DNA of 64,000 nucleotides. Source: Acidobacteriota bacterium (lineage in GTDB: Bacteria > Acidobacteriota > Vicinamibacteria > Vicinamibacterales > 2-12-FULL-66-21). The notes under the pieces were generated by a model. It saw nothing but the letters and a program-made list of their open reading frames with translations, did no database searches and had not been told where the DNA came from. This document shows, piece after piece, positions 30,030 to 55,134 of this stretch (the first letter of the stretch is position 1; each line of letters begins with the position of its first letter). Where the stretch lies: positions 69,287 to 133,286 of the forward strand of contig JACPDI010000007.1 of assembly GCA_016184105.1 (NCBI GenBank), given 5' to 3'. Both the position numbers and the translations under genes were made by a program.

Positions 30030-30197
30030 TTACCCGCGCGAGGTTTCCTGCGCGGCGCGCCGGGCGTCAATCTCCCGCTGCCCGCGGAGAATCGAGCACC
30101 ACGGCTTATGGTCGTGCACGGGCATGCCGCATTCGACGCAGACGTGAATCCGCTTGGGCGGCTCCCCCCTGCCAATCAGGCGTTTCCAGAATGTCAT
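30030..30197 (-). CDS. 55-aa Cys/His-rich small protein (possible zinc-ribbon); not in the ORF track
   Basis: My translation is MTFWKRLIGRGEPPKRIHVCVECGMPVHDHKPWCSILRGQREIDARRAAQETSRG*. A GGAGAGGG RBS lies 6-8 nt upstream of the ATG at 30197. It sits 88 nt downstream of the small cytochrome-like gene on the same strand. Confidence 0.45.
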   Translation of the reverse strand: MTFWKRLIGRGEPPKRIHVCVECGMPVHDHKPWCSILRGQREIDARRAAQETSRG

Positions 30198-30285
30198 CGG
30201 TCCCTCTCCAGTCCCTCGCCCCGGCCACCGGGCCAGGTGCCCTGTGTTCGAATACGAGGGACGGAGAGGGAGGGTTCCACGGCAG

Positions 30286-30708
30286 CTACTGGCGGCTCGC
30301 CGCCAGCTTGTACTCGTAGAGTTCCTTCTTGCGGATCTTGGAGTCGTAGACCGCGAACTCGTAGATCTCCATGGCGTCGGCCGGGCTGATCATGGCGCGC
30401 CCCGCCCGGCGCATCATGCGCTTGATGTAGCGCTCCCAGTCGTCCTCGAGCACGAAGTCGCAGTTGACCGCGCGCGCCAGCGGGTGGCACTTGCCGCCGC
30501 ACCGGTCGGCGAAGATCTTGTACTTGCGCTTCATCTCGGGCGTGTATTTCGACACGTCAATCTTGTCCGGCCCGGCGTCCCACGAGATCACCTTCTTGTC
30601 GAGCGGGCGGTCGTCGTAGATCTGCGAGCCGATCACCCGGACCGACACGGCGGCCGTCAGGACCATCGAGACGAACACCATTGCCACCAGTACCTGCTTC
30701 ACGGTCAT
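30286..30708 (-). CDS. Small membrane-anchored protein with CX3CH motif (putative variant monohaem cytochrome), paralogue 1
   Basis: It has a GGAGGA RBS, the N-terminal TM segment MTVKQVLVAMVFVSMVLTAAV, and the motif CGGKCH followed by PLARAVNCDFVLEDDWERYIKRMMRR. Confidence 0.7.
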   Translation of the reverse strand: MTVKQVLVAMVFVSMVLTAAVSVRVIGSQIYDDRPLDKKVISWDAGPDKIDVSKYTPEMKRKYKIFADRCGGKCHPLARAVNCDFVLEDDWERYIKRMMRRAGRAMISPADAMEIYEFAVYDSKIRKKELYEYKLAASRQ

Positions 30709-30742
30709 CCTCCGAACGTGAATGTGTTGACGGGGTCGTGCG

Positions 30743-31156
30743 CTACTCCGATCCCTGTTCCTTCAGCCGGCGCTCGTACAGCTCGCGCTTGCGGACCTTC
30801 GCATCAAAGACCGCGAACTCGTAGGACTCGAGCGCCTGCGCCGGCGTGATGAGCGAGCGGCCGCGGCGCATCATCCGCTTGATGTACCGCTCCCAGTCGG
30901 CTTCGAGGACGAAGTCGCAGTTGACGGCGCGCGCCAGCGGGTGGCACCGCGCGCAGAGGTCTTCGAAGGTCTTGTACTTCTTCCTGATGTCCGGCGGGTA
31001 CTTCGACACGTCGATCTTTCCCGGGCCGCTGTCCCACTGCACGATCAGCGGATCGATCTGTCGTGCCGCGCCGGACTGTTGTGCCTGTGCGAGCAGCAGC
31101 CGCGCGGGCATCGCGAGGGCCATTATCAATACGGCTGCAGACAGAATCCGGGGCAT
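30743..31156 (-). CDS. Small secreted protein with CXXCH motif (putative monohaem cytochrome), paralogue 2
   Basis: It has a GAGGAG RBS and a signal peptide ending in LLLAQA. The motif CARCH is followed by PLARAVNCDFVLEADWERYIKRMMRR, and the core aligns residue-for-residue with paralogue 1. Confidence 0.7.
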   Translation of the reverse strand: MPRILSAAVLIMALAMPARLLLAQAQQSGAARQIDPLIVQWDSGPGKIDVSKYPPDIRKKYKTFEDLCARCHPLARAVNCDFVLEADWERYIKRMMRRGRSLITPAQALESYEFAVFDAKVRKRELYERRLKEQGSE

Positions 31157-31173
31157 GTGCGTCTTCTCCTCAC

Positions 31174-31193
31174 GGGTGGCCGTCCGGCCACCC
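31174..31193 (-). other. Intercistronic stem-loop (8-bp GC stem, 4-nt loop) between the barrel gene and the small cytochrome-like gene
   Basis: On the + strand gggtggcc gtcc ggccaccc is a perfect inverted repeat. The RBS and ATG of the next gene follow directly. Confidence 0.5.
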
Positions 31194-31201
31194 TCAACTC
31201 C

Positions 31202-33376
31202 TTACCACGTCCAGATGAACCGCACGGCGGCGGACTTCGCGGTGTACGGCCGCAGGACGTAGCCCAGCAGGAGGCTGCCCGGCAGGTCGATCCGGTTCAG
31301 CGTCTCTGGGCTCATGGCAAAATCGTCCACGTCGTACCTGTCGTACCAGCCGAGCAGCCCGATCGCGACCCGGCGCGACAGGTGGAACCGCAGATCGCCG
31401 GTCGCAGACGTCAGGTCGTGAGTGATCGCCGGCAGCTGTACCGGCGCCACCAGCGTGCTGTCGGCCGGCAGCCGATACACGTACGTCGCGCGCGAGCGCG
31501 AGTCGTCGAACGACATGCTGACGTCGACCCTCGGCAACAGCCTGAGGAGATCCAGGGAGAAGCCGATCGTCTCGGTGCGGTCGGCGCTGTCGGTCGCCCA
31601 GTCGCGCCGGTGATCGACGATGAGCGCGGTGCCCGGCACCAGGGTGGAGTGCGAGTTCTGCAGCGCCGCAAAGCGCTCGTTCGTGTACGACACGCTCGCC
31701 GCGACACGCGACCCCGGCGTGATGTCGGCGGTCACGGTGTACGACTTGTTCTCGTTGTTCCTCAGCCCCAGGGCGCTGTTCAGGTAGTCGTCCTTCCCGT
31801 ACGACGCGGACGCCGTCAGGCCGAAGGCGTCCACCGGCGCCAGCTGGATCAACGCCGTCACGCGGTCGCGGTCGCGATCGGCGACGTCGAAGTGGCGGAG
31901 CCCGAGCTGTTCGGTCGCCGAGAGCAGCAGATGCTCGTCGAAGCCGGATCCCCGCCGCTGCGAGCGCTCGAGGATCGCGCGGACGGTCACGAAGCCGGCC
32001 GACGAGTCGACCGACGCGCGCACGAGGTCCTCAGTCGTCTTCTGGAAGATGCGGAAGGTGCGATCGTCGGTGTTGCGCGAGTACCCGATCCGCATCGCGG
32101 TGAGCGGCACGGGCGTGAACGACGCGTCGGCGTCGAAGTTGTAGCGCGTGAAGCTCAGGGGTTCGGTCTCGGCACCCTCGTGCACGGTCTGGTCGAACAC
32201 GACGTCGATCGGGGTGTGGAACACGGGCGTGCGATTGTCGAAGTCGTAGGATCGGAACCGTGCGCTGAGGAAGACATACCGCGTCGGCTGCGAGGTGAAC
32301 CCGACGTTGGTCGCCACCGTCCGCGCGTCCCCTTCAAGCGTCTCGCGGGGCAGCGGCGCCGCGGGCACCGCGGTGTTGATCGTCACCGGCAACAACTGCG
32401 CGTCCTGGGTCCACGCGCCGAACGTCATGCTGGCCGTCACGCGGCTGTTGGCCGGCAGCTTCGCCGTGCCGGACGCGGTGATCCCCTGCATGCGGCTGTC
32501 GGGCGGCATCGCCATGCGCCCGCGCGATCCGCCGAGCCCGTTCGAGTAGTTGTTGGAGGCGGTCGAGTCGGTGAGCTTCAGCGGGTTGTCCCACACCAGC
32601 GTGGGCACGTTGTTCTCGAACGCCGATCCCTGGTAGCCCACGCGCACCATGCCGCGCGCGTTGGCCCACTCCACGCCGCCGCTCACGTCGGTCGTGCGCG
32701 TGTCGAGCGGCGCCATGACCTCGACGACGTCCGCGAAGCCGAATGACGCGGTCTGCGGGTACGTCCCGTCGCGCCGTGTGTGCTTCACGCCGAGGCTCAC
32801 GGTGAGCTCGCGTGTCGGGCTGTACGCCAGGTCGACCCTGGCGATATCACGCCGGGAGGTGGCAGCCATCGGCGACGCCGCGCCCGCCGACTGCGACAGG
32901 GTCGCGCGTCCCGCCTGGATCGCCGCGCGCATCGCATCGTCCAGGCGCAGCACGCCTGGCGACTCGCTCGTGTAGAGCGTGCGCGTGTCGCCGCTGATCC
33001 AGAGCGGGATCTGGTCCCACTCGACGGACACGCGGACCTTCGATCCGTTGCGGAAGGTGGCGGACAGCCGCCGGTCTTCCGCGCTCAGATGGTCGCCGCT
33101 GGCATTGAACGTCCAGCCGGTCCCCTGGCGATCGAGCGTGAAGTGCTCGACCACGAGGCCGTCACTGAAGTCGCGGTACCGCTGGAAGCGGTACTTGTCG
33201 CCCGTGACATCGGTGAAGCGGCTGCCGGCGTCGAACGACGCGGCGAAGCCCTGCGGCGCGGCGAGCTGCGCGGCGGAGGGAACGAAGATCTGCTGGCCGG
33301 GGTCGTTCTGCTGCGCCGAGGCCGCCGCGCCCGTGAGAAGAAGTCCGGCTGCGACAAACGTCAGTGGGGTGCGCAT
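31202..33376 (-). CDS. MtrB/PioB-family outer-membrane beta-barrel (decahaem-associated porin)
   Basis: The start MRTPLTFVAAGLLLTGAAASAQ (signal peptide) lies 17 nt after the cytochrome stop. The roughly 724-aa product has alternating beta-strand character and a C-terminal aromatic end (...RFIWTW). The track ORF extension to 34189 overlaps the cytochrome gene in another frame and is rejected. Confidence 0.75.
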   Translation of the reverse strand: MRTPLTFVAAGLLLTGAAASAQQNDPGQQIFVPSAAQLAAPQGFAASFDAGSRFTDVTGDKYRFQRYRDFSDGLVVEHFTLDRQGTGWTFNASGDHLSAEDRRLSATFRNGSKVRVSVEWDQIPLWISGDTRTLYTSESPGVLRLDDAMRAAIQAGRATLSQSAGAASPMAATSRRDIARVDLAYSPTRELTVSLGVKHTRRDGTYPQTASFGFADVVEVMAPLDTRTTDVSGGVEWANARGMVRVGYQGSAFENNVPTLVWDNPLKLTDSTASNNYSNGLGGSRGRMAMPPDSRMQGITASGTAKLPANSRVTASMTFGAWTQDAQLLPVTINTAVPAAPLPRETLEGDARTVATNVGFTSQPTRYVFLSARFRSYDFDNRTPVFHTPIDVVFDQTVHEGAETEPLSFTRYNFDADASFTPVPLTAMRIGYSRNTDDRTFRIFQKTTEDLVRASVDSSAGFVTVRAILERSQRRGSGFDEHLLLSATEQLGLRHFDVADRDRDRVTALIQLAPVDAFGLTASASYGKDDYLNSALGLRNNENKSYTVTADITPGSRVAASVSYTNERFAALQNSHSTLVPGTALIVDHRRDWATDSADRTETIGFSLDLLRLLPRVDVSMSFDDSRSRATYVYRLPADSTLVAPVQLPAITHDLTSATGDLRFHLSRRVAIGLLGWYDRYDVDDFAMSPETLNRIDLPGSLLLGYVLRPYTAKSAAVRFIWTW

Positions 33377-33393
33377 GCTGTCCTCTCTTCGCC

Positions 33394-34572
33394 TCACCGC
33401 TCGAGGTACTGGCCAGACGGGTGGTTCGACCCGTGGAGATTCGGGTGGCAATTGACGCAGGCGCGTCCGACCAGCCGGTTGTTGCGGTTGGCGAGCGCCA
33501 CGCGGTCGTAGATCGTCGCCGGGTGTCGCGACACGATGTGGCAGCGCTGGCAGAGCATCGGGGCCTTGGCCACGAGCATCCGGTCGTTCGAAGAGCCGTG
33601 CGCGTCGTGGCAGGTCGCGCAGCTCTCCCGCACGGGCGCGTGCTCCCACATGAACGGGCCGCGCTTCTCGGCGTGGCAGCTCAGGCAGGATTCGTTGATC
33701 GTGTTGCCCGCCTTCAGCAGGCGCACGTTCGTCGTGCCGTGCGGGCCGTGGCAGGAGGTGCAGTCCATCTTGCCCTCGCGCACCGGCATGTGCGCCGAGC
33801 GCTGGAGCTTCGCGGCCTTCTCGCGGTGGCATCGCGCGCAGGTGGCGACAATCGTCGCCCCGCGCAGGTGGCCGTCCGTGGATTTCGGATCGTGGATGCT
33901 GTGGCAGCCGGCGCACGGCACGTTGCGCGAGGCATGCACGCTGCCCTGCCACTGCGCGTGCTCGCCGCGGTTGTGGCACGAGAGGCAGAACTCGCTGGCC
34001 TCGCGCGGCGACATCTTGACGAACGGGCGCAGCAGGAGCCCTTTCTCCGCCGGCTCGTCGTCGTGCGCCTGGCCCGGGCCGTGGCAGGTCTCGCAGCCGA
34101 GCGACGCGGCCGGCGTCCGCTCGTCCCACTCGCGGCCGTGCGGCCCTTCGCGGTACGCCTTCAACTGCTTCATGTGGCACCGCGCGCACTTCGCCGTGCC
34201 CGTGTAGGTGAACCTGCGCGTCCGGGGCGCGTCCGGCTCCTCGTCATCGGCCTCGAAAGGATTCGTCGGCTTGGCCGCCTTCTGTCCCGGCGCCGCGCCC
34301 TCTTCTTCCTCTTCTTCCTCCTCGTCCGGATCGAGAAATGGATTGCGTTTCGGCTCCGGCGCGGGCGCCGGTTCCGGTGCGGACGGCGCGGGCTTCGGCG
34401 CCGCCTGGCCCGATGGCGGCGGCTGCGGCGGTGGCGTCTGCGGGGCGGAGAACGCCAGGCTCACCATCGCGGCAAAAGTCCAGCAGATGACCCCCGCGAC
34501 GATCGCGACAGCCGGACGGCTCGGCACCCGCCGAAGCAGGTGCGCCCTCGCGGGCGTGTTGGATGGCGTCAT
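33394..34572 (-). CDS. Periplasmic decahaem c-type cytochrome, MtrA/DmsE/PioA family
   Basis: I counted ten CXXCH motifs: CARCH, CETCH, CLSCH, CAGCH, CARCH, CTSCH, CLSCH, CATCH, CQRCH and CVNCH. It has the family-typical C-terminus HGSNHPSG. I chose the start MTPSNT (GAGGAG RBS, signal peptide). Confidence 0.9.
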   Translation of the reverse strand: MTPSNTPARAHLLRRVPSRPAVAIVAGVICWTFAAMVSLAFSAPQTPPPQPPPSGQAAPKPAPSAPEPAPAPEPKRNPFLDPDEEEEEEEEGAAPGQKAAKPTNPFEADDEEPDAPRTRRFTYTGTAKCARCHMKQLKAYREGPHGREWDERTPAASLGCETCHGPGQAHDDEPAEKGLLLRPFVKMSPREASEFCLSCHNRGEHAQWQGSVHASRNVPCAGCHSIHDPKSTDGHLRGATIVATCARCHREKAAKLQRSAHMPVREGKMDCTSCHGPHGTTNVRLLKAGNTINESCLSCHAEKRGPFMWEHAPVRESCATCHDAHGSSNDRMLVAKAPMLCQRCHIVSRHPATIYDRVALANRNNRLVGRACVNCHPNLHGSNHPSGQYLER

Positions 34573-34620
34573 GATGTGCTCCTCGCGCCGCAGGCCGATG
34601 CGAGCGCGGAAGGATGGAGG

Positions 34621-34636
34621 GCAACTGCCGTGCCTC
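34621..34636 (-). promoter_or_regulatory. Sigma-54 (-24/-12) promoter upstream of the decahaem cytochrome gene
   Basis: The minus strand reads GAGGCACGGCAGTTGC, that is GGCACG-N4-TTGC with exact GG-N10-GC spacing. The GC element is 49 nt upstream of the ATG at 34572. Confidence 0.65.
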
Positions 34637-34774
34637 CCTGTTTGCGGTGGCATCGACTCAGACAACCTGTTTGCCCGTCAGCAGTTGCGAGCGGCAAGTG
34701 GCCGCGGCGCGGTGCGTGCGCTGGCACGGCACGTCCGTGGTTCGGATTCGCGTCCAGATCCGGGACGAGCGGGT

Positions 34775-36175: not shown

Positions 36176-36177
36176 GT

Positions 36178-37161
36178 TCACACTGCCGCGGCCACCCGGC
36201 CGTCCGCGTCCTGCGGCACGGCGCCGGGACCCGCGATGATGGCGTCGACATCCAGCAAGGCGACCGCGTCGCCCGCGACCGAGAAGATTCCGCGCGTGAA
36301 CCACTCGCGGCGCTCGACCTCAGCGTGCCGCCGATCGGCCGCGGTCGCACGATGGAGCGCGACGTCCGCCCCGACGCGGAACGCGAAGAAGCCGCCGCGG
36401 CCGCGACCTCCGGATCGCGCCACCAGGAACCGTTCCGAGCCGTTGACGTCCGCGCCGTGTTCCCCGTTGAACCGCAGGATCGGCACGGCGTGGTCCCGCC
36501 ACCATCCGACCGCATGGATGTGCGGCGCCGCACCCGGCAGCGGGATCCAGGGCAGCGACTGGACGATGCCTCCCACGCGATCCGCGGCCAGGGCGTACCT
36601 CGCTGCGTGCACGCTCGGCAACGCGGCGCTCGTGAACGTCAGCGCCATGCCGGAGGCGACCGCACCCGTCCTCCCGCCCGCTGGCTGCGCGATCGGCGGC
36701 GTGGCGCGGCGCGGCGCGGCGGGCGCCAGCGGATCGATGCCCCGTGGCGAGAGAACGAGGCAGAACACGACGTCCCCCATCCGCAACAGCCCGTCGAACC
36801 ACGCCGAGGGCGTCGCGCCGGCCGCCGCGGGGAGCGGCAGCAGCGCGGGCGATCCGGCAGGAGTGCGCACGATGCGATCGACGAGCAGGCCGAACGACTC
36901 GCCGTCGCCTCGCGTCACGATGACGTAGCGGTCGGCGACCGACGACTCGGGCGCGCGTCCGAACAGTCCCGACAGGCCGTAGACCGGCAGCGTTTCGGCG
37001 CCGTACCGCAACGTGCCGACGCGGTTCGCAGGCCCCGCCCCTTTCTTCACGTATTCCGCGCGGGCGACGACGCGGATGTCGGCGCCGGCGAGCGCGTACT
37101 GTTCCATTCCCACGACGCAGCAGATGAAGCCACCAAGTCCGGATTTCCGTTCACCTGTCAT
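36178..37161 (-). CDS. CheW-like coupling protein with two CheW-type domains (ChpC position)
   Basis: It shares an ATGA overlap with the cheB stop. It has two segments resembling the CheW fold (...YALAGADIRVV...LVDRIV... and ...YALAADRVGGIV...). Only the last 327 codons of track ORF 36178-38154 are used. Confidence 0.65.
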   Translation of the reverse strand: MTGERKSGLGGFICCVVGMEQYALAGADIRVVARAEYVKKGAGPANRVGTLRYGAETLPVYGLSGLFGRAPESSVADRYVIVTRGDGESFGLLVDRIVRTPAGSPALLPLPAAAGATPSAWFDGLLRMGDVVFCLVLSPRGIDPLAPAAPRRATPPIAQPAGGRTGAVASGMALTFTSAALPSVHAARYALAADRVGGIVQSLPWIPLPGAAPHIHAVGWWRDHAVPILRFNGEHGADVNGSERFLVARSGGRGRGGFFAFRVGADVALHRATAADRRHAEVERREWFTRGIFSVAGDAVALLDVDAIIAGPGAVPQDADGRVAAAV

Positions 37162-38219
37162 GACGACTGCCCCCGCATGGCGAGCATCGAGCCGATGACA
37201 TCGGGCGTGCCGACGAAGTCGGCGCCCGCGCGTTCGAGCGCCTGCGTCGGCATGCTGTCGATCACGCAGCTCGAGGGCTCCTGCACGTACGCGTCGCCGC
37301 CGCGCTGCCGCACGCGCTTCAGCCCCTCGGCCCCGTCGCGCCCCATGCCTGACAGCACGACGCCCACGCTCGATGCGCCGTAGCTTTCCGCCGCCGAAAC
37401 CATCGCGAAGTCGATGGAGGGCCGGTACAGTTCCTCTTCTGCCGTCGGCCGCAATTCCAGCCGGCCTCCGGGGCGCACCAGCAGGTGGCGCGAGCCGGGC
37501 GTGACGATGATCGATCCGCGGGCGAGCCCGACCCCCGCGTCCGCCTCTCGGACCGGCAAGCGGGCATAGCGCCCAAGTTCCGCGGCGAAGGCGGTCGTAA
37601 ACGTCGCGGGGAGGTGCTGGACCACCACGCAGGGGATCCGGAAATCGGACGGCAGCTGCGCGAGGAGCTCGCGGAGCGCCGCCGGACCGCCCGTCGAGGC
37701 CCCGATCACGATGATCCCTTCGTGACCTGGCGCGGTCCTCGGGCCGTGCAGGCGCCCGCGCGGGTCGGGGTGACGGACGGGCGGACGCGCGACGGCCCGT
37801 TCCGGTTTCCGCGCATGGCGCGGCCGGACGGTGGCGGCCGTCATGACCTTGCTCACGATCTCCCTGCGCAGCGTCGCGGGGCTGACGGGCGCGCCCGGCG
37901 TGTACTTCAGGACGAAGTCCACCGCTCCCACCTCCAGCGCCCGCAGCGTCGTCGCGGCCGCGCGGCGCGACACGCCGCTCACGACCACGACGGCGGCGGA
38001 GGTTTCGGCCACGATTTGCCGCAGCAGCCCGAGGCCTTCGGCTCCAGGCATCTCGAGGTCCAGCGTGAGCACGTCGGGCGACGTGCGGCGGACGAGATCC
38101 ATCGTCGACGCCGCGTTGTGCGCGGTGCCGACCACCTCGCAGTCGCCGGCGCACTCGAGGTACGAGGCCAGCAGGCGGCAGGTGAATGCCGAGTCGTCGG
38201 CGACGGCCACTCGGATCAC
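37158..38219 (-). CDS. cheB: Protein-glutamate methylesterase CheB (REC + methylesterase)
   Basis: It has the REC motifs IRVAVADDS and DVLTLDLEMPG, and the esterase motifs IGASTGGP, HLP..FT and GMGRDG. Confidence 0.9.
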   Translation of the reverse strand: MIRVAVADDSAFTCRLLASYLECAGDCEVVGTAHNAASTMDLVRRTSPDVLTLDLEMPGAEGLGLLRQIVAETSAAVVVVSGVSRRAAATTLRALEVGAVDFVLKYTPGAPVSPATLRREIVSKVMTAATVRPRHARKPERAVARPPVRHPDPRGRLHGPRTAPGHEGIIVIGASTGGPAALRELLAQLPSDFRIPCVVVQHLPATFTTAFAAELGRYARLPVREADAGVGLARGSIIVTPGSRHLLVRPGGRLELRPTAEEELYRPSIDFAMVSAAESYGASSVGVVLSGMGRDGAEGLKRVRQRGGDAYVQEPSSCVIDSMPTQALERAGADFVGTPDVIGSMLAMRGQSS

Positions 38220-41997: not shown

Positions 41998-43886
41998 CGC
42001 GCCGCCGATTCGGCCTGCCTGGCCGCGTCAGCCATCGGCACGACGTAGCCGCTTCCGTTGCCGTTGCCGTTGGTCGGCAGCTTGAACCGCGCGACCGACT
42101 TGTTGAGGCCGTCGGCCAGCGCCGAGAGCGATCCGATCGCGACGGCCGTCTCCTTCGTGCTCGTCGCCGTCGTGCGCGTGACCGAGGACATCTCGTTCAT
42201 CGACCGCGCGATCTGCTGCGACCCGCGCGCCTGCTGCTGCGCGGCGTCGGAGATCGCCTGGATCAGCTCGGCGAGGCGGTTCGACACGCCCTGGATTTCG
42301 GTGAGCGCGACGCCCGCCTCGTTCGCGATGGCCGACCGGTTCACGACCTCCCGCGTCGTGTCTTCCATCGCCGACATGACTTCCGCCGTCTCGCTCTGCG
42401 TCGTCTTGACGAGCATCGCGGCCTTCTTGGTCGCCTCGGTCGCGCGGTCCGCGAGCCGTTCGACTTCTTCGGCGACCACGCCGAACCCGCGGCCCGCCTC
42501 GCCGGCCATCGCCGCCTGGATCGACGCGTTCAGCGCGAGGATGCTCGTGCGGTCCGCGATGTCGCCGATGAGCTCGACGATCTCGCCGATCTCCTGCGAG
42601 CTCTCGCCGAGCCGCTTGATCCGCTTCGCGGTCTCCTGCACCTGGTCGCGGACGGCTTTCATCCCCTCGATCGTGCGGGCGACGGCGCGGGCGCCCTGCT
42701 CCGCGTTCGCGCGCGCCTGCTCGGCGACCGCCGCCGACGAGGACGCGTTTTCAGACACCTGGTTGATCGACGTCGCCATCTCCTCGATCGCGGCCGACGC
42801 CTCGATCGCCTGCGACGCCTGCGCCTCCGTGCCGGAGGCGAGCGACGAGGTGAACGACCGCAGCTCGACGAGCGAGCGGGAGACGTCGTGCGTCGCCCCC
42901 TGCACGTGGCCGATGATGCCCCGCAGCTCGGCGATCATGAAGTTGAAGGAGTCGGCGAGCGCGCCGGTCATGTCCGCGGTGACCTCCGCCTGCGCCGTGA
43001 GGTCGCCGTCCGCCACGCCGCTCACCTCGTCGAGCAGCTTCATGATGGCGGCCTGCATCGCGTCGCGCTCCTGGCGCGACTGCACGAGGGCGACCGTGTT
43101 GTCGAGCATCGTGTTGAGCGACCGGCCCACCATGCCCAGCTCGCTCTTCCCGGGATTCTCGACGCGGCTCGTGAAGTCGCCGACCGTGATGGCGTCGCAC
43201 ACCTTCACGAGCGAGTTCGCTTCATTCAGGATCGGGCCCTGGACGAAGTACTTCATGAACGGCAGGAGGACGACGAACGCCAGCAGCAGCGCGAGGATCA
43301 CGCCCACGTACGCGCGGCCGATCCCCTGCTCCACCTGGCGGCCGCCGGCCGCCATCCGGTCGCGGTACCGGACGAAGAACGCGCTCGACAGCGACTGCAG
43401 CTGGTCGACCGTGGCGCGCATCGCCTTCGCTTCCGGCCCGGTCGGGTCCGCCGCCATGAAGCTGCCGCTCTGCGCGGCCTCGCGCGCGCCCTCGAACTCC
43501 TGCTGGTACGTGGCGAGCGCGGCGCGAATGGCCTTCGCGGTCGCCTGCTCGTCCGGTTCGGTGGCCAGCGAGTCGATTTCCTTCAGGCGCTCGACCGCGT
43601 GTCCGTGCGCCGTTCTCCAGTTCTGCAGCTGGGCCATCGCCTCGCGCGACCGCGGCGCGTCGTCCAGGAAGAACGTGCGCTCGAATCGGACCAGCTCGGC
43701 GACGTGCAGCGCGAACTGCGCGGCGGCGCCCGCCATCTGCGCGTCCTTGTGCACGAGCTGTCTCGCCTGCTGGTCGACGGTCCGGATGCTCCACAGCCCC
43801 GCCGCCGTGCCGCCCGCCAGCATGACGGCCAGCACGGCGACCGTCAGGAGCAGCCGGCTTCTGATTTTCAGGTTCTTGCTTCGCAT
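41994..43886 (-). CDS. Methyl-accepting chemotaxis protein, PilJ-like
   Basis: The start is [14 protein letters not shown] followed by a TM segment. It has a four-helix-bundle-like periplasmic domain, a second TM and a HAMP domain. The segment [35 protein letters not shown] is followed by the conserved signalling hairpin ([34 protein letters not shown]). Confidence 0.9.
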
Positions 43887-44575
43887 GATGCTTCCTCTCT
43901 CCGATCTTCGAACTGCCGGATGTCCGCCGAACGCAGCAGTCGCTCGAGGTCGAGCACGGCGACGAGCCGCTCGCCCACCTGCGACACGCCCGTGAGATAG
44001 GGCGCCAGCGCTCCCTCGATGGGCCCGGACGGGGGCTTCACCGAGTCGAGCGCCACGCCGACGATCTGCTCGACCGAGTCCACGAGCAGGCCCGCCGTGA
44101 ATTCCTCGTCGGCCAGCCGGACGACGAGCAGGCGTCCGGTATAGGGGGAGACCGCCTCGAGCCCGAGGAGCGCTCTCAGGTCGATCACCGACACGACATC
44201 GCCGCGCAGGTTCACCACGCCCCGCACCCAGGCGGGCACGTGGGGCACCGCCGTGATGCCGGGCACGCGCGCGACCTCGGAGACCAGCGCCTGCGAGACG
44301 CCGTACATCGACCCCGCCACGCCAAACAGGATCAGCCGCGTGCGCGGGCTCGCGGCCTCCGCCGGCGCGGCGTCTGCCGCGAGCGGCGCGGCCGCGTCGG
44401 ACGACAGCGCGTCGAGCAACGAACGATCGCCGTCGCCACCGGCAAGCGGCGGCGCTTCCGCCGATTCGCCGGGCGCCGGCGCCGGAGGCGGCATCGCGTC
44501 GCCGGGCGACGCCAGCCAGTCCTCCAGCAGCGACGACGGATCGATCTCCGGCTCGTGATGACGTCGGTCGTCCAT
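43868..44575 (-). CDS. cheW: CheW-like coupling protein (PilI position)
   Basis: The start MDDRRHH shares a TGATG overlap with the cheY stop. The CheW domain reads [25 protein letters not shown]...[19 protein letters not shown]. Confidence 0.85.
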
Positions 44576-44937
44576 CACGACTGTCTCGCCACCGCGGCGA
44601 GCAGATCGGCATCCTGGTAGGGTTTGGCGATGTACTCGTCCGCCCCCTGCTTCATGCCCCAGAACCGATCGCTCTCCTGGTTTTTGCTGCTGACGAGGAT
44701 GATCTTGATGTCGCTCGTTCCCGCCGTCGTCTTGAGCTGCCGGCACACCTGGAAGCCGTTCTTCTTCGGCAGGATGATGTCGAGCACCACGATCGGCGGG
44801 TGGGTCGCCGATGCCTTGTCGATCGCTTCCTCGCCATCGACCGCGGTCGTCACCTCGTACCCGTGCTTCTTGAGCAGCGAGACGAGCATCTGCAGATCCG
44901 TCGGACTGTCATCCACGACGAGCACTTTCTTGGACAT
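44575..44937 (-). CDS. Single-domain response regulator, PilH-like CheY
   Basis: An AAGGAGAGG RBS precedes [14 protein letters not shown]. Further motifs are [12 protein letters not shown] and [23 protein letters not shown], which by recall is close to P. aeruginosa PilH. Confidence 0.88.
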
Positions 44938-44964
44938 TGGCCTCTCCTTGAGCATTCGCGCGGT

Positions 44965-46329
44965 CTAGCCATGCGCCACCTCCGGGCCGCCCGGGCAGTG
45001 CGTCGCGATCACCGCGAGCACGGCGGGCGCCTGGAACGGCTTGGTCAGGTACTCGGTCGCGCCCACCATGCGTCCCTTGACCTTGTCGAAGAACCCGTCC
45101 TTGCCCGAGAGCATCACGACGGGCACGTGCGCCGTGCGCGGGTCCTTCCTGATCCGCTTGCAGACCTCGTAGCCGTCGAGTTTCGGCATCGTGATGTCGA
45201 GCAGGATCAGGTCGGGCACGAACTGCGCGAGCCGCTCGACGGCGCGCTCGCCGTCCGGCTCCGCCACGACGGCGTAGCCCGCGCGCTCGAGCGTCATGCC
45301 GAGAATCTTGCGGATCGTCGCGCTGTCGTCGACGACCATGACGGTGCGCCGCTCCGCCGCGGCGGTGGCACGCGCGGCCGGCCCCTTTCGGCGCGCAGCG
45401 GACGCGGGTGCGGCGGGCGCCGGCGCCGGCGCTGCCGTCGCACGCGCCTGGAGCCGCGCGAGCCACGCGGCGGCGCGCTTGTGCGCGGGGTCGATGCGGC
45501 ACGCGGTCTCGACCGCGTTGCGGATCTCGGCCTCGTCGGCCGACGTGGACGCGATGCCGAGCCAGGCGTCCGGGTCGCGCTCGTCGAGCGACAGCGCTTC
45601 GCGCCAGCGCTCGTGCGCCTCGCCCTGCTGCCCCGCGGCGCCAAGCGCGGTGGCGTCGGCGACGAGCGCCTTCTTCAGCGCGGCGCCGCCGCCGGGATGC
45701 GCGGGGGCCACCCGCAGCAGCTCGCGGCACGCGCTCACCGCGTCGGCGGGACGCTCCGCCAGCCGCGCGAGCGCCTGCCAGACGCGCGGGTCCTCCGGGT
45801 TGATCGTCGCCGCCTCGCGGAACAGCGCGCGCGCCTCGGCGATCTTCGCGGTCTTGGCGCACAACACCGCCTGGTGCAGCACCGCCTCGTGCAGTCTGGT
45901 GCGGAATTCCTGGCGGTGCGGCGCCACCGCGGCCGCGTGGCGGAGCGCGTCCAGCCGCTGCGCGGGGTCGTCACTGAAGTGCGCCAGGGCCGCCCACGCG
46001 GTCTCGAGTTGCGGCGCCAGCTCCACGGCCTGCGCGAGCAGCGCGCGCGCGCCCGCCCGATCCTGCTCCGCGGCTGCAAGCGCCTGCGCGACGAGCAGCT
46101 TGCCGAACGCTTCGCGCGCGGGCCCGTGCGCGGGATCCACCTCGAGGACCTTCCGCAGGCACGTCACGGCGGTCGCCGCCTCCGGCGACGCGATCGCCAG
46201 CCAGAACCAGACGGCGGGGCTGTCCGGCGCCATCTCCGCGGCGTGCTCGAGCAGCGTGCGGGCGCGGTCGAACTCGCGCGCGTACGCGGCCGAGATGCCG
46301 TCGCGCAGGGATTCAGCCGCGCCGCGCAT
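44965..46329 (-). CDS. TPR-domain protein fused to a PilG-like receiver domain
   Basis: The C-terminal REC reads VMVVDDSATIRKIL...LLDITMPKLDGYEVC...VVMLSGKDGFFDKVKGRMVGATEYLTKPF, which by recall matches PilG's MLSSKDGLFDKAKGRIVGSDQYLTKPF. The N-terminal roughly 320 aa are TPR-like repeats. Confidence 0.85.
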   Translation of the reverse strand: MRGAAESLRDGISAAYAREFDRARTLLEHAAEMAPDSPAVWFWLAIASPEAATAVTCLRKVLEVDPAHGPAREAFGKLLVAQALAAAEQDRAGARALLAQAVELAPQLETAWAALAHFSDDPAQRLDALRHAAAVAPHRQEFRTRLHEAVLHQAVLCAKTAKIAEARALFREAATINPEDPRVWQALARLAERPADAVSACRELLRVAPAHPGGGAALKKALVADATALGAAGQQGEAHERWREALSLDERDPDAWLGIASTSADEAEIRNAVETACRIDPAHKRAAAWLARLQARATAAPAPAPAAPASAARRKGPAARATAAAERRTVMVVDDSATIRKILGMTLERAGYAVVAEPDGERAVERLAQFVPDLILLDITMPKLDGYEVCKRIRKDPRTAHVPVVMLSGKDGFFDKVKGRMVGATEYLTKPFQAPAVLAVIATHCPGGPEVAHG

Positions 46330-46735
46330 GCCCGTTCACCACCCGTTCGATGTGCCGCATGAGCCGCGGCAGCTCCACCGGCTTCGTCTGGTAGATGTCC
46401 ACGCCGCGCCGGACCGCCTCCTCCTGCGTCGCCTCAGACCCGTACGCCGTCAGCATCACGACGCACGCGACCGGGCTCCGCAGGCGCGCGTGCTCCGCGA
46501 TGCGCAGCCCCTCGCCGATGCGCCCCGGCGACAGATGGAGATCGGTGATGACGGCGTCGTACTGATGGAGGTCGAGCAGCTGCAATCCCTCTTCGGACCG
46601 CAGCGCGCAATCGACGTCGTAATCGGCGAGCGTGAAGAACGACCGGAGCGCGAGCACCGTCCCGAGCTCGTCGTCGACGATGAGAAGGCGGCTGCGTTGG
46701 ACGACAGGGTGGAGGGCGTCCGAGGCGGTTCCCAT
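46313..46735 (-). CDS. Stand-alone receiver-domain response regulator
   Basis: It has LLIVDDE, AVITDLHLSPG and TKP. I chose the start MGTASD, but no obvious SD precedes it, so the start is uncertain. Confidence 0.75.
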   Translation of the reverse strand: MGTASDALHPVVQRSRLLIVDDELGTVLALRSFFTLADYDVDCALRSEEGLQLLDLHQYDAVITDLHLSPGRIGEGLRIAEHARLRSPVACVVMLTAYGSEATQEEAVRRGVDIYQTKPVELPRLMRHIERVVNGHARRG

Positions 46736-46742
46736 GACGGCC

Positions 46743-46772
46743 CTGCCGGGGCAACCATCATGCCCCCGGCAG
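46743..46772. other. Stem-loop (9-bp perfect stem CTGCCGGGG/CCCCGGCAG, 12-nt loop) in the NtrC-REC intergenic region
   Basis: Read directly. On the minus strand it ends 8 nt before the ATG at 46735. Confidence 0.5.
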
Positions 46773-46872
46773 TTGTCAGGGCGCGCGAACCGCAAGTGCC
46801 GCGCGCGCGGTCAGTTGCCGCGTTCCGGGGGCGCTTTGCCGGGATGCGCGGCGCCGCGCCGGAGTCTGGCGT

Positions 46873-48243
46873 TCACACTTCAGTCCAGATTCTGGACGAC
46901 TTCAGCTTCTGGTACATCGTGCTGCGCGGAATCCCGAGCCGGCGCGCCGTGCGCGGCACGTTGCCCTGCTCTTCTTCCAGCACGCGCTTGATGTGCTGCC
47001 ACTCCAGTTCTTTCAGCGTGCTCGCGTTGGTCGCCGGCATCCCCTTGGCCGGCGGGCAGAACAACCGCAGGTCCGCGCGGCGCAGCACCGGCGACGAGGC
47101 CAGGAGCACGGCGCGCTCGAGCACGTTGCGCAGCTCGCGGACGTTGCCCGGCCACGTGTGGGCGACGAGCGCCTGCTCCGCATCGGGGCCGAGCTGCGGC
47201 ACGGGACGCCGGATGTCGCGCGCCAGCAGCGCGAGCAGGTGCTCGGCGATGGCCGGCACGTCCTCGACGCGGTCGCGGAGCGGCGGCAGCCGCAGCACCA
47301 CCGTGTTAATCCGGTAGTAGAGATCCTCGCGGAAACGTCCTCCAGCAACGAGCCGCGACAGATCGTGGTTGGTCGCCGCGATGAACCGGAGATCGACGCG
47401 TCGCTCGGCGACGTCGCCGAGCCTCCGGAAGCGCTTCTCCTCGACCACCTTCAGCAGCTTCGGCTGCAGCGACATGTCCATGTCGCCGATCTCGTCGAGG
47501 AACATCGTTCCCCGGTGCGCCGCCTCGAGCAGCCCGGGCTTCATGCCGGTCGCCCCGGTGAAGGCGCCCCGCTCGTGCCCGAACAGTTCAGACTCGAGCA
47601 GCTCGCGGGGCAGCCCCGCGCAGTTCAGCTCCACGAGCGACTCGCGCGAGCGGCTGCTCGACTGGTGGATCCACCGGGCCAGCACCCCCTTGCCGGTGCC
47701 CGTCTCCCCTTCGATGAGCACCGGGACCTCGCTCGACGCGACCGACCGCGCGTCGCGCGCCAGCGCCCGCATCGCGGCACTGCGGCACGCGAACAACACG
47801 TCCACCGGCGTCTCGACCCCGCGCGAGCGCGTGGCGTACAGGCGCCGGGAGTTCTGCTGGTGCTCGATGAGGCGCTCGATCAGCACCACGAGCGATCCCA
47901 GCTCCACCGGCTTGGTCAGAAACTGCTCGGCTCCTTCCTTGATGGCGGTGACGGCAAGCTCGATCGACCCGTGTCCCGTCAGCACCAGGACCGGCACGTC
48001 GACGGCATCCGCTTTCAGCCGCTTGAGGAGGTCAACGGCGTTGCCATCGGGGAGCGCGTAGTCGAGCAGCACGACGTCGGGAACGTCCACGTCCAGGCGC
48101 GCGCGCGCGGCTGCGCACGTGTCCGCCTCCTCGACCTCGTAGCCGGTGGCCTCCAGGTACGAGCGCACGCCCAGGCGCACGCTCGCATCGTCATCGACCA
48201 GCAGGATACGGCTCTTCAACACGGGTGACTCCTTGAGCGACAC
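46873..48243 (-). CDS. Sigma-54-dependent response regulator (NtrC family: REC - AAA+ - Fis-type HTH)
   Basis: It has ILLVDDD and VLLDYALPDG, Walker A GETGTGKG, the GAFTGA loop (ERGAFTGA), ESELFGHE, RFREDLYYRIN, and the C-terminal HTH RTARRLGIPRSTMYQKLK. Confidence 0.93.
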   Translation of the reverse strand: MSLKESPVLKSRILLVDDDASVRLGVRSYLEATGYEVEEADTCAAARARLDVDVPDVVLLDYALPDGNAVDLLKRLKADAVDVPVLVLTGHGSIELAVTAIKEGAEQFLTKPVELGSLVVLIERLIEHQQNSRRLYATRSRGVETPVDVLFACRSAAMRALARDARSVASSEVPVLIEGETGTGKGVLARWIHQSSSRSRESLVELNCAGLPRELLESELFGHERGAFTGATGMKPGLLEAAHRGTMFLDEIGDMDMSLQPKLLKVVEEKRFRRLGDVAERRVDLRFIAATNHDLSRLVAGGRFREDLYYRINTVVLRLPPLRDRVEDVPAIAEHLLALLARDIRRPVPQLGPDAEQALVAHTWPGNVRELRNVLERAVLLASSPVLRRADLRLFCPPAKGMPATNASTLKELEWQHIKRVLEEEQGNVPRTARRLGIPRSTMYQKLKSSRIWTEV

Positions 48244-50314
48244 GGACCTGGCGTTCGGGCGGCGTGAGCGGCAGCGAGACGGTCACGATCGCGCCACCCT
48301 CCGGATGGTTCGCCGCGGCGGCGGTGCCGCGGTGCTCCGCGACGATCCGCTCGCTGATCGCGAGCCCGAGGCCGAAGCCTCCCGCCCGGCGGCTGAAGAA
48401 CGGCGCGAACACGCGGGGCAGATCCTCGGCCGCGAACCCACGCCCCCGATCGCGCACCGTGATGTCGACCAGCCTCGGGCGGGCGGGGGGACGCAGCGCG
48501 ACCGCCACGCTGACCGCCGCTCCGGCCGGCGAATGCTGAATGGCGTTCTGAATGAGGTTGATGAAGACGCGGACCAGCCGCCGGGAATCCATCCACACCT
48601 GGAGATCCGGAGCCGGCCCGGCGGCAACCCGCACGCCGTGCTGCTCCGCTTCGGGCGAGCAGGCGCGCACCGCCTCCTGGATGACCGTCGCCAGCGGCGA
48701 GGGCTGCAGCACGACCTTCGTCGGCCGCCCGTACTCGAGCAGTTCGGTCATCAGCGTGTTGACGCGCCCCACCTCGTGCCTCAGCGCGTCGAGGAACTGC
48801 GAGGGATCGCGGTTGGTCTGCACGGACCACGCGTCAACCAGCGACGACATGGCGAACAGCGGGTTCCGCACCTCGTGCGCCACGCCGACGACCACCGAGC
48901 CCAGCGCCGCCATCGTCTCCGAGCGGCGCAGCGACCGCTGCAGTTCGACGAGCGACGTGGTGTCGCGCGCCACGACGACGACCGACCCGCTCCCGTGCGG
49001 CGACCGGCACCAGAGATCCCACGTGCGGCCGGTCTCGGCGTGGTGTACGCGCGCCGCGGAAGCCTCCTGCGTTTCGACCGCCTCGCGCGCCAGCGCCAGC
49101 GCCGAGTCCCACGGCGGGTAGAACGCGAGCTCCTCGCTCGGCAGCCCCAGCCACGAGAACGGCTCGCCGGGCAGTGTGTCGGAGGCGACGCGGTTCATGC
49201 GCGCGATCTTCCCGAACGGATCGAGGACCATCAGCGCGGCGTCGATCGTGTCCACCGTGGTGCGCCATTCGACGGCCGCACTTTCGAGCCGCGCGTTGAG
49301 CGCCGTCAGCTCCGCGTGGCTGCGTTCGAGATGCTCGCGGCGCGCGGCTTCCGCCTCCGCCTGGATCCGGCGCCGCCGCTGCGCCCACGTCACCTGCATG
49401 ACCAGGCCAAGGGCGAGCAGCGTCGCGGCCATCAGGGCGGCAAGCTGCCGGAACTCGGCGCCGAGCACGCGCACCACGCTGTCGGCGGGCGCCATCAGCG
49501 CGGCGACCCAGCGCTCCCCCTCGAAGTCGAACGGCGCCACGGCGCCGAGGTGCTGTGCGCCGCGCAGCGAGTACCGGATCGCCCCGCGCGGCATCTCGAA
49601 CATGCGCTCGACGTGGTCGAACGACTGGTGACACGTGCGGCACAGCGGCGTGCGCCGCTTGATGTTGCGGAGGCGCATCTCCGGGTGCGCCGTTCGAAAG
49701 ACGACATTGCCGCGGCCGTCCAGGATCAGCCCGGCGACGGACGGATCGTCGAGCGTGGCCCCGGACCCGGACAGCAACGAATCCAGCTCCGACTCCGCCG
49801 CAAGGACACCGCCCGGGCCGCCGTGCGGGCCGGCCGCCGGCTCGCGGACCGGCGTGGCGAAGACCAGCGAGGGCGTGACGGCAGAGGACACCGCCGTTTG
49901 CATCCGGCCGGCGTTCGCCGGATCGCCGGCCCACCGCGCCTGCGCGTCAATCTCGGGGGAAGACAGGCCCGGCGACCGGCCGGCGGCGTAAGCCAGGCGG
50001 CCGTCCGCGCCGTAGAACGCGATCCCCACAAAGCACGGCGGTTCCGTGCAGCGGACCTGCTCGTCCAGCATCGCGCGGACCGACGCCACGTCGGGCTGGC
50101 GCGCGATGGCGCCCGACAGCGCGCGCAGCGTCCGGGCGGCGCCCGTCAGCTCGGCGCGCAGCGTGGCCGCCACCACGTCGGCCGTGTGGAGCTGGTGTTC
50201 CTGGAAATCCTCGATCGCGCGCGACTTGTTGTACGTGTGGAGACGCCAGCCGACGGCGACCGCCGACACCAGCACGCACGCAATGACACCGGACATGAAC
50301 CGGGACGTAAGCAT
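48191..50314 (-). CDS. Sensor histidine kinase with periplasmic domain carrying a CXXCH motif
   Basis: A GGAGGGGAG RBS precedes it. TM1 spans about aa 8-24 and TM2 about aa 285-310. CRTCH lies at aa 225-229 (nt 49628-49642), between the two TMs. A cytoplasmic PAS-like region follows, then the H-box AHEVRNPL and the HATPase motifs (NLIQNAIQHS, DRGRGF, GFGLGL). Confidence 0.88.
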   Translation of the reverse strand: MLTSRFMSGVIACVLVSAVAVGWRLHTYNKSRAIEDFQEHQLHTADVVAATLRAELTGAARTLRALSGAIARQPDVASVRAMLDEQVRCTEPPCFVGIAFYGADGRLAYAAGRSPGLSSPEIDAQARWAGDPANAGRMQTAVSSAVTPSLVFATPVREPAAGPHGGPGGVLAAESELDSLLSGSGATLDDPSVAGLILDGRGNVVFRTAHPEMRLRNIKRRTPLCRTCHQSFDHVERMFEMPRGAIRYSLRGAQHLGAVAPFDFEGERWVAALMAPADSVVRVLGAEFRQLAALMAATLLALGLVMQVTWAQRRRRIQAEAEAARREHLERSHAELTALNARLESAAVEWRTTVDTIDAALMVLDPFGKIARMNRVASDTLPGEPFSWLGLPSEELAFYPPWDSALALAREAVETQEASAARVHHAETGRTWDLWCRSPHGSGSVVVVARDTTSLVELQRSLRRSETMAALGSVVVGVAHEVRNPLFAMSSLVDAWSVQTNRDPSQFLDALRHEVGRVNTLMTELLEYGRPTKVVLQPSPLATVIQEAVRACSPEAEQHGVRVAAGPAPDLQVWMDSRRLVRVFINLIQNAIQHSPAGAAVSVAVALRPPARPRLVDITVRDRGRGFAAEDLPRVFAPFFSRRAGGFGLGLAISERIVAEHRGTAAAANHPEGGAIVTVSLPLTPPERQVRVAQGVTRVEEPYPAGR

Positions 50315-55100: not shown

Positions 55101-55134
55101 GCGATTCCGCGATCACGCGCACGCGATGACCGCT

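Follow-up and report, generated by a model that had tools for sequence, protein, structure and literature searches.

It is still an open question how bacteria locate insoluble electron donors or acceptors and then remain on them. The nearest functional precedent for a chemosensory contribution, in the part of the published account drawn on here, is the Esn network of Geobacter sulfurreducens, in which a class-40H set of methyl-accepting chemotaxis protein (MCP), CheW and CheA is needed for electrode colonisation (PMC5585712); as far as that account goes, sensing and conduit genes are unlinked in this model. A second described system joins a chemosensory cluster to a transcriptional regulator: in Myxococcus xanthus, the CrdS/CrdA pair is reported to be cooperatively regulated by Che3, with the NtrC homologue CrdA as the Che3 output (PMC3147164). 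On the side of the electron conduits, a 2022 survey of Mtr clusters describes an acidobacterial group of Bryobacterales or unclassified Acidobacteriia, with MtrC, and mentions neither chemotaxis nor sigma-54 nor Vicinamibacterales. Here we analyse a stretch of 64,000 nucleotides (the window) from an Acidobacteriota bacterium of the Vicinamibacterales (GenBank assembly GCA_016184105.1, contig JACPDI010000007.1, positions 69,287 to 133,286), in which three separable modules lie next to each other: a sensor histidine kinase with an NtrC-type activator, a chemosensory (che) operon in the gene order of pilus-type systems, and mtrA-mtrB with two small genes of the CXXCH type. A preliminary description of this DNA had called the arrangement undescribed, and we likewise found no published description of it in the literature on Vicinamibacterales Mtr or Mto and on chemosensory systems combined with extracellular electron transfer. 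The parts are each known; what is new is their conserved fusion and a putative promoter design that they share.

Can a common regulation of these modules be read from the DNA between them? A strict sigma-54 core, GGCAY-N5-TTGC, has only two matches in the 64 kb, one before REC1, the first gene of the che operon, and one before mtrA (Table 1). Only this strict core is informative, as a loose 16-mer pattern allowing two mismatches showed no enrichment in the window (14 matches versus 19 expected). The second element is a 15-bp palindrome, GTCC-N7-GGAC in the form GTCCNGRWTCNGGAC, present in three copies compared with 0.68 strand-hits expected, a count that none of 100 shuffles reached. Both window cores lie downstream of a palindrome, at distances of 132 and 133 nt, the che core being the one at 133 nt. 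When the spacers between the last che gene, which encodes a tetratricopeptide repeat (TPR) protein, and mtrA are aligned for the linked loci, the sigma-54 core and the palindrome are the two stretches conserved in spacers that otherwise diverge. Some 20 nt downstream of the palindrome comes a conserved CAGACG box.

The spacing holds beyond the window. All 10 promoter regions compared, seven of mtrA and three of che, have a palindrome with at most one mismatch at 131-134 nt upstream of the core. On the mtrA side it is kept in all seven linked lineages; on the che side, the related loci L087 and L088 carry one-mismatch copies at 132 and 134 nt from the core. An equivalent core precedes REC1 in L087, in L088 and in L089, a free che array that stands apart from the other two modules. 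In silico, the target promoters have the -24 GG and -12 GC elements together with an upstream activating site ~100-150 bp away, and the neighbouring activator has the composition of an NtrC-type protein (REC, AAA+ with GAFTGA, and a helix-turn-helix, HTH). The predicted layout is that of a classical enhancer-binding-protein site with a sigma-54 promoter, common to both operons, and the shared architecture is direct sequence evidence for coordinated expression. The third palindrome, ahead of the kinase gene, is the copy of which we are least sure; it may serve autoregulation. The 202-nt gap before mtrA holds no riboswitch or structured RNA (fold z-score -0.97), no Rfam match was obtained anywhere in the window, and a scan of the cluster for sigma-70 promoters and terminators returned nothing informative.

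The best-supported statement that these comparisons allow is that the che operon and mtrAB would be co-induced by one enhancer-binding protein. For this role the NtrC-type protein encoded alongside is the obvious candidate, likely with the adjacent haem kinase as its partner. A fuller reading, to which we give about even chances, is that kinase and NtrC-type protein form one sigma-54 regulon in which they co-activate the pilus-type chemosensory system and the conduit. The double-Cache domain of the kinase, carrying covalently bound haem c, would sense the periplasmic redox state or a haem ligand (NO, O2), and the kinase would phosphorylate the adjoining enhancer-binding protein. This activator, we infer, binds GTCC-N7-GGAC ~132 nt upstream of two sigma-54 promoters, of which one would drive the chemosensory operon (counted at 12 genes) and the other mtrA-mtrB with the two small cytochrome genes; because the activator site stands at both promoters, both operons would be induced together. 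The receivers of the array and its SgmX-like TPR protein would then most likely act on type IV pili whose genes lie elsewhere in the genome, and MtrAB with the small monohaem cytochromes would move electrons across the outer membrane in the style of PioAB/MtoAB, without MtrC. The net effect would be a coupling of pilus-based surface motility or attachment to the deployment of the conduit.

The linkage itself is found in a number of relatives. Among named homologues, those closest to MtrB and CheA belong to metagenome-assembled genomes (MAGs) of Vicinamibacterales/Acidobacteria, and relatives were gathered by MtrB-anchored and CheA-anchored look-ups and by a metagenome scan with an MtrB alignment (80 loci). 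The latter was used in place of scans with the double-CheW protein, for which a first alignment was too divergent and a second retrieved no true relatives. Linked lineages number seven: the window, L001/L002, L003, L005, L087, L088 and L093. Among those anchored on MtrB, L001/L002 (MtrB 75-76% identical), L003 (64-65%) and L005 (50-51%) share the order MCP-CheR-CheA-CheB-double CheW-TPR, a ~200-bp gap, MtrA-MtrB and small open reading frames (ORFs). All 20 kb of the arrangement, kinase through small ORFs, recur in the CheA-anchored loci L087 (CheA 72% identical) and L088 (60-61%), both with an NtrC orthologue directly after the kinase, and the metagenome scan added L093 as one further linked locus among its 80. 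The lowest identities within the set are 60% for CheA, 46% for MtrB and ~50% for the kinase. Flanking genes vary on both sides, with glp genes, MarR/YceI, aconitase or porin/MFS genes downstream and a RodZ_C or peptidase M16 gene upstream. Judged by these identities, the linkage has been kept through large divergence while its surroundings changed. The possibility of chance juxtaposition, which the preliminary description had put up for a neighbourhood check, can thus be set aside, as the che-MtrAB adjacency recurs in seven lineages with rearranged flanks.

Both modules also occur by themselves. About 70 MtrAB loci of the metagenome scan are without che genes, and in L004 and L006 MtrAB stands beside other redox modules, again with no che genes. 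Conversely, five free che arrays (L089, L170, L171, L172 and L173) have neither an upstream kinase/NtrC pair nor MtrAB; their CheA is 57-60% identical to that of the window, with L171 at 69% over the 63% of the query that aligns. They run in the order receiver, TPR-receiver, PatA_N protein, receiver, CheW, MCP, CheR, CheA, CheB, double CheW. REC1 is also present in L089, L170 and L173, and the TPR-REC and double-CheW proteins are kept in all linked and free arrays. In their first 3 kb, the free arrays stand back-to-back with a divergent second che cluster (CheB, a CheA without receiver, and CheW or MCP), and in L089 the spacer shared by the two divergent clusters holds sigma-54 cores in both directions.

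Among the loci with both ends visible, an upstream kinase/NtrC pair and downstream MtrAB are both present in three and both absent in five. This co-occurrence fits the pair as the regulator of the conduit, with the che array placed between regulator and target. In neighbour-joining trees of both CheA and MtrB, the seven linked lineages form one clade with similar topology, and the linkage therefore had a single origin and was co-inherited as a whole unit. The sister group consists of the free che arrays in the CheA tree and, in the MtrB tree, of che-less MtrAB loci that share the small cytochrome.

Regulation by sigma-54 appears to extend past this clade. A sigma-54-like site lies at most 700 nt upstream of mtrA in 24 of 55 informative loci, compared with ~3% expected from background, which suggests that MtrAB is in general controlled through sigma-54 in this part of the Acidobacteriota. 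An NtrC-type gene stands directly upstream of mtrA in the che-less loci L102, L130, L137, L140 and L168, and farther off in L158 and L159; in L102 it follows the gene of another kinase, one in which two CXXCH motifs are periplasmic. MtrAB control in this part of the phylum thus seems to recur in the form of a haem-containing kinase with an NtrC-type activator and sigma-54. As a separate observation, L168 (metagenome contig Ga0326597_10001082, 1-17215) holds four tandem MtrA-MtrB pairs, preceded by two NtrC-type genes.

What could the kinase respond to? Its periplasmic domain of ~265 aa (aa 26-290) is dCache-like, and the CXXCH with its flanking motif is invariant in L087 and L088. An exhaustive search for homologues of the sensor domain (window 49445-50239) yielded 164 representative clusters, and in 30 of 30 homologues read the motif HPEM..RN....C..CH.SF stands at the same place. 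These homologues are fused to histidine kinases, hybrid kinases, NarL-type kinases, a GGDEF-EAL protein and an HD-GYP protein. A dCache_1 match spans the whole domain, weak for the window copy and above the cutoff for three of five homologues scanned, and there is no DUF3365 match even at E values of up to 5. The sensor is therefore analogous to, but distinct from, the single-Cache haem domains, and membership of the sCache_heme/DUF3365 family was rejected. Within that family, members fused to signalling modules have been reported as NO sensors and stand-alone members as redox proteins (PMC12889525). More generally, the proteins P0354-P0502 represent a widespread double-Cache periplasmic sensor with an invariant CXXCH, which matched only the generic dCache_1 and no dedicated Pfam model.

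The chemosensory array shows the Pil-Chp order, with receiver, receiver, CheW, MCP, CheR, a hybrid multi-Hpt CheA-REC, CheB and an extra CheW; we take CheR, CheB and the double CheW to occupy the PilK, ChpB and ChpC positions. Up to ChpA, this order is the same in the loci retrieved from Pseudomonas, Xanthomonas, Stenotrophomonas and Acinetobacter, and the part comprising receiver, receiver, (CheW), MCP and ChpA is seen in the Pil-Chp loci L080, L058, L033, L020 and L083. CheA is 30-37% identical, among the matches listed, to ChpA of the proteobacterial Pil-Chp loci examined. The signalling domain of the MCP shares 48-53% identity with MCPs in the PilJ position (327-380 aligned columns), and REC2 shares 35-43% with the pair of receivers that precede pilI/pilJ in the loci of Pseudomonas, Xanthomonas and Acinetobacter. 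Homologues of the window CheA carry the JGI name ChpA. The pilus-class assignment rests on gene order, on the pairwise CheA and MCP identities and on these homologue names. A scan of a genome collection with a CheA alignment and generic patterns gave, among the matches listed, identities of at most 42% and no Vicinamibacterales; many of the loci listed come from taxa that carry Pil-Chp, of which five were checked.

The output of the array is suggested by two parts of such arrays. The window array has three canonical receivers besides the CheA-REC, and relatives carry a PatA_N gene between the first two receivers (L088, L089 and L170-L173). In the cyanobacterial work as far as cited here, PATAN-domain receivers are part of phototaxis systems and are reported to interact with the pilus motor (bioRxiv 2021.06.11.447907). 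Within the linked clade PatA_N decays stepwise, from 288 aa in L088 (5548-6414) through a C-terminal fragment of 172 aa in L087 (5630-6148) to absence in the window. The second part is the terminal TPR protein, whose residues 6-94 match the N-terminus of SgmX (NF052243 positions 2-90, E 8e-15), a co-linear match that is also obtained with the orthologues in L001, L003, L005 and L087 and in L172, which is without MtrAB. In SgmX, TPRs 1-8 form the pilus-activating domain and other TPRs dock onto a CheY-like receiver (PMC9811614). Since the free arrays are without kinase, NtrC and MtrAB yet contain these parts linked to type IV pili, pili encoded elsewhere are the most likely output. PatA_N in relatives and the SgmX-like N-terminus are leads to such an output, not proof of it.

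In the conduit, MtrA scores 254.5 bits with TIGR03508, the DmsE decahaem family (cutoff 192.2), and MtrB 241.4 bits with TIGR03509, MtrB/PioB (cutoff 240.05); the barrel gene starts 17 nt after mtrA. As MtrA is the only ORF with at least two CXXCH motifs in the 64 kb, there is no MtrC and no CymA-type quinol dehydrogenase in this stretch. A decahaem cytochrome with an adjoining barrel corresponds to the MtrAB/PioAB/MtoAB gene set and, as no MtrC/OmcA-type protein is encoded, not to MtrCAB of the Shewanella type. Between signal peptide and first haem, MtrA has a Pro/Ala/Glu-rich extension of ~90 aa (~aa 70-150) with a run of eight or nine Glu, and it is 366-437 aa long in linked loci versus 308-318 aa in the che-less L004, L006 and L102. 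The extension is reminiscent of PioA, which also has a long N-terminal extension.

The two small proteins encoded after mtrB, sm1 and sm2, belong to a family of 112 homologues, each with a signal peptide and with invariant C68, C71, H72 and WERYIK.MMR. Their genes follow mtrB in linked and che-less members of the closer MtrB clade. In sm2, an insertion of one residue turns the motif into CX3CH (CGGKCH or CGGRCH), which is seen only in the window and in L001/L002 (L001 12683-13105), the others having CXXCH. No Pfam or NCBIfam family and no PDB sequence matched the sm proteins. An AlphaFold model (predicted local distance difference test, pLDDT, 74.5) is all-helical, and Foldseek returned weak matches to class I cytochrome c domains (E 0.8-3.6). 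Assignment to a known cytochrome family was therefore rejected, the fold being suggestive of one without establishing membership. From motif and model, the sm proteins are probably monohaem periplasmic c-type partners of MtrAB.

Several points weigh against a sigma-54 regulon that joins array and conduit through one kinase and one activator. The pairing of kinase with NtrC is assumed from their adjacency. The third palindrome has no correctly spaced sigma-54 core, the nearest GGCAT...TTGC being spaced 5 nt too far apart; autoregulation through it is for that reason only a possibility, and it is doubtful whether this copy belongs to any sigma-54 promoter of the kinase operon. On the che side, the palindrome lies in ntrC codons, so that part of its conservation could reflect coding constraint, and the core stands ~15 nt from the annotated REC1 ATG with almost no leader, and the annotated start could be wrong. 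Of the free arrays, L089 was the one examined for the palindrome; it has a sigma-54 core but no palindrome, and the che operon was thus probably sigma-54-dependent before linkage, the palindrome having been gained in the linked clade. As to the pilus output, the SgmX match covers ~90 residues and reaches 54 bits versus a cutoff of 1800, so that it falls short of full-length membership. PatA_N is missing from the window, where a gap of 9 nt (44955-44965) takes its place and tblastn detected no remnant gene, and the L087 copy is truncated. There is also no pilus gene among the window genes scanned, as the preliminary description had said of all 64 kb; missing pilus genes near the array are not unusual for pilus-class chemosensory systems. 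The seven linked examples represent one retained evolutionary event, neither independent confirmations nor repeated assembly, and all carriers are uncultured lineages known from MAGs or metagenomes.

The decay of PatA_N in the linked clade would also fit a rewired output, and Pil-Chp of Pseudomonas has, besides its pili, a transcriptional output through cAMP. Both speak for a wiring like that of Che3 and CrdA, in which CheA or a receiver would modulate NtrC phosphorylation alongside the kinase, so that the array tunes mtrAB instead of, or besides, pili. The placement of kinase and NtrC immediately beside the che cluster, as described for CrdS/CrdA of M. xanthus in the sections cited (PMC3147164), points the same way. 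We nevertheless regard this wiring as unlikely, if conceivable. Che3 is without CheY according to the same sections, compared with three canonical receivers and a CheA-REC here, and the same array exists without an adjoining kinase or NtrC in five sister loci. Moreover, the che operon is itself located downstream of a palindrome and a sigma-54 promoter, and would thus be among the activator's targets, a feedback loop being possible. Such wiring could coexist with a joint activation of both operons, and it is closest to the idea of the preliminary description, which had proposed a surface- or redox-sensing system that coordinates expression or use of the conduit. The shared promoter architecture points to the kinase/NtrC pair as controlling both operons; it does not show control of the conduit by the che array.

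The single origin of the linkage raises the question of whether it means anything at all. The che array could have been inserted once between kinase/NtrC and their mtrAB target and simply never been separated since. The che-less relatives with NtrC directly upstream of mtrA, in L102 together with a kinase, fit such an insertion, and both modules work alone in other lineages. Still, mere historical adjacency seems quite improbable to us. The unit has been kept down to 46% MtrB identity while its flanks turned over, and in three lineages the che promoter has a site of its own, with a spacing of 132-134 nt, which the free array L089 does not have. It is this second site at the same spacing that disfavours passive insertion, which does not predict it. 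Finally, it is highly improbable that array and TPR scaffolds position or assemble MtrAB at a pole or contact site without pili: the che operon does encode two TPR proteins, the terminal one directly before mtrA, and the window has lost PatA_N, but the terminal protein also occurs in the MtrAB-less L172, its only specific similarity is to a pilus activator, and both TPR proteins are without predicted export signals, whereas MtrAB resides in periplasm and outer membrane.

Gene content was established by calling genes from third-position GC, chosen because the window has ~70% G+C, followed by a Pfam check. The stretch from 50314 to 30030 contains 17 consecutive minus-strand genes (Pfam, translations), one fewer than the 18 counted in the preliminary description. 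Otherwise, its account of domains, order, coordinates and strand agrees with Pfam and the translations, its module identities with Pfam and NCBIfam, and the sigma-54 site that it placed in the 202-nt gap is real (Table 1). Start positions also confirm the tight junctions it noted, mostly overlaps of 1-19 nt or gaps of at most 45 nt, as well as the limits of the two larger gaps of 137 nt (46736-46872) and 202 nt (34573-34774). The reading frames of kinase and ntrC share up to 53 nt, and an 88-nt gap precedes the 55-aa ORF.

Table 1 Genes and putative regulatory sites of the cluster, listed in the direction of transcription; positions are those of the window.
Feature	Position	Strand	Remarks
Palindrome GTCCAGATTCAGGAC, third copy	50628-50642	.	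17 nt past RodZ_C gene stop, ~310 nt before kinase start
Sensor histidine kinase (HK)	48191-50314	-	TM1, periplasmic CXXCH at aa 225, TM2, PAS_4, HisKA, HATPase
NtrC-type sigma-54 enhancer-binding protein	46873-48243	-	REC, Sigma54_activat (E 1e-64), GAFTGA, HTH_8
Palindrome GTCCAGAATCTGGAC	46883-46897	.	Within last ntrC codons; putative upstream activating site for che operon
Sigma-54 -24/-12 core GGCATGATGGTTGC	46751-46764	-	Putative che-operon promoter, ~15 nt before REC1 ATG, in 137-nt gap
REC1, stand-alone receiver	46313-46735	-	First gene of che operon; Pfam
TPR-REC	44965-46329	-	PilG/PixG position, canonical C-terminal receiver; Pfam, translation
REC2	44575-44955	-	Single-domain CheY/PilH-like receiver; Pfam
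CheW	43868-44575	-	PilI position; Pfam E 2e-31
Transmembrane MCP	41994-43886	-	PilJ position; 4HB/TarH periplasmic domain, HAMP, signalling domain
CheR methyltransferase	41134-41997	-	PilK position; Pfam
Hybrid CheA, ChpA/PixL type	38216-41137	-	Two Hpt, dimerisation domain, HATPase, CheW, C-terminal REC
CheB methylesterase	37158-38219	-	ChpB position; Pfam
Divergent double-CheW protein	36178-37161	-	ChpC position; Pfam
TPR protein, 466 aa	34775-36175	-	Last gene of che operon; Pfam
Palindrome GTCCCGGATCTGGAC	34752-34766	.	9 nt after TPR stop; putative upstream activating site for mtrAB
Sigma-54 -24/-12 core GGCACGGCAGTTGC	34621-34634	-	~50 nt before mtrA ATG, in 202-nt gap
MtrA/DmsE-family decahaem cytochrome, periplasmic	33394-34572	-	Exactly 10 CXXCH
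MtrB/PioB-family outer-membrane beta-barrel	31202-33376	-	PF11854, E 2e-85
sm1, small secreted CXXCH protein	30743-31156	-	Translation
sm2, paralogue of sm1	30286-30708	-	CX3CH; translation
55-aa Cys/His ORF	30030-30197	-	Translation

The 55-aa ORF had been taken as the end of the cluster. The ORF is present and probably a real small gene, its L003 counterpart matching at 69%; whether it belongs to the cluster is doubtful. A signal peptide is missing, and in L003 the ORF lies ~1.6 kb past the last small-cytochrome gene, behind MarR and YceI genes, so that it was rejected both as a haem protein and as a cluster member. The encoded product of 55-57 aa (window 30030-30197 and L003 14694-14867) is a cytoplasmic Cys/His mini-protein of the pattern CVECG...H.HK.WC with the look of a zinc ribbon, not consistently found beside Mtr genes. 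Past it (28825 to ~29740) follows a GlpQ-like phosphodiesterase within a glp cluster.

Three further observations concern the rest of the window. At 52743-53312 on the minus strand, an ORF of 189 aa has only AAA_lid_14 and HTH_8, with no upstream room for an AAA+ core, and looks like the remnant of a truncated enhancer-binding protein. At 53536-59027, a minus-strand gene for an Alginate_exp-type outer-membrane porin is divergent from genes for a 985-aa molybdopterin oxidoreductase with an AhtL-like first domain and a 4Fe-4S subunit with a CarboxypepD_reg domain; an Alginate_exp porin with a molybdo-enzyme/NrfD set also adjoins MtrAB in L004. At 16528-18476 on the plus strand, a gene for an extracytoplasmic-function sigma factor (Sigma70_ECF type) overlaps a Ser/Thr protein kinase gene.

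The cluster is compact and conserved: it combines a sensor and an activator with a che operon, a conduit and two predicted promoters that share a defined 15-bp site, and it suggests a joint switching-on of surface behaviour and extracellular electron transfer. It also suggests that the Vicinamibacterales, recovered here mainly from metagenomes of soil and rhizosphere, may take part in extracellular electron transfer, and it points to two families that are not listed as such in Pfam or NCBIfam, the haem-c double-Cache sensor domain and the small CXXCH protein associated with MtrAB. A more far-reaching and rather doubtful idea is that a pilus-class pathway has been captured into a haem-sensor/NtrC/sigma-54 regulon and, with PATAN decaying, is becoming a dedicated behavioural arm of extracellular electron transfer. 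Such an arm could have pili move or attach the cell according to the redox state of minerals, or it could control expression or deployment of the conduit directly. If true, this would be a genetically hard-wired link of chemosensory behaviour to extracellular electron transfer, of which we found no report.

How does the locus compare with the known systems? The nearest in gene content are Pil-Chp of Pseudomonas aeruginosa and Tax1/Pix of Synechocystis, with which it shares gene order, a CheA-REC with several Hpt domains and, in relatives, PatA_N. It differs from both in the 320-aa TPR extension of its TPR-REC, in an extra CheW that is double, in an operon that ends in an SgmX-like TPR protein and begins at a predicted sigma-54 promoter with an upstream palindrome, and in being flanked by the haem kinase/NtrC pair and MtrAB with no pilus gene nearby. 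Unlike the cyanobacterial Pix/Tax systems, it has no PATAN domain on or beside the first receiver. The terminal TPR protein resembles SgmX, the type IV pilus activator of M. xanthus, in being co-linear over its N-terminal ~90 residues, which fall within the pilus-activating domain; at 466 aa compared with a profile of 1065 positions, it has no assignable MglA- or FrzS-binding region. The sensor resembles sCache_heme domains (DUF3365/Tll0287; GSU0582, GSU0935) as an extracytoplasmic Cache-type sensor with a strictly conserved CXXCH and fusions to signalling outputs (PMC12889525), and differs in its double-Cache size and in a motif located in the membrane-proximal half.

On the conduit side, PioAB of Rhodopseudomonas and MtoAB-MtoD of Sideroxydans have the same succession of decahaem cytochrome and barrel without MtrC, and the small cytochrome genes follow mtrB much as mtoD adjoins some proteobacterial mtr clusters (PMC8805035). 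What sets the window apart are small cytochromes of an unlisted family, the predicted regulation by sigma-54 and an enhancer-binding protein, and a Vicinamibacterales host. With Che3-CrdS/CrdA of M. xanthus it has in common the combination of che cluster, histidine kinase and NtrC-type sigma-54 activator (PMC3147164), but its array is of the pilus class with three receivers and its che operon is apparently a target of the activator, whereas Che3, in the sections cited, has no CheY. The closest likeness in function is to Esn/ExtABCD of Geobacter, where chemosensory signalling is also tied to extracellular electron transfer (PMC5585712). There, as far as the cited part of the account extends, the genes are scattered, with esnA outside the esnBC cluster, the output is the diguanylate cyclase EsnD, and no promoter architecture shared with the conduit operon is reported; in the window, sensing and conduit genes adjoin and their two promoters have a common design.

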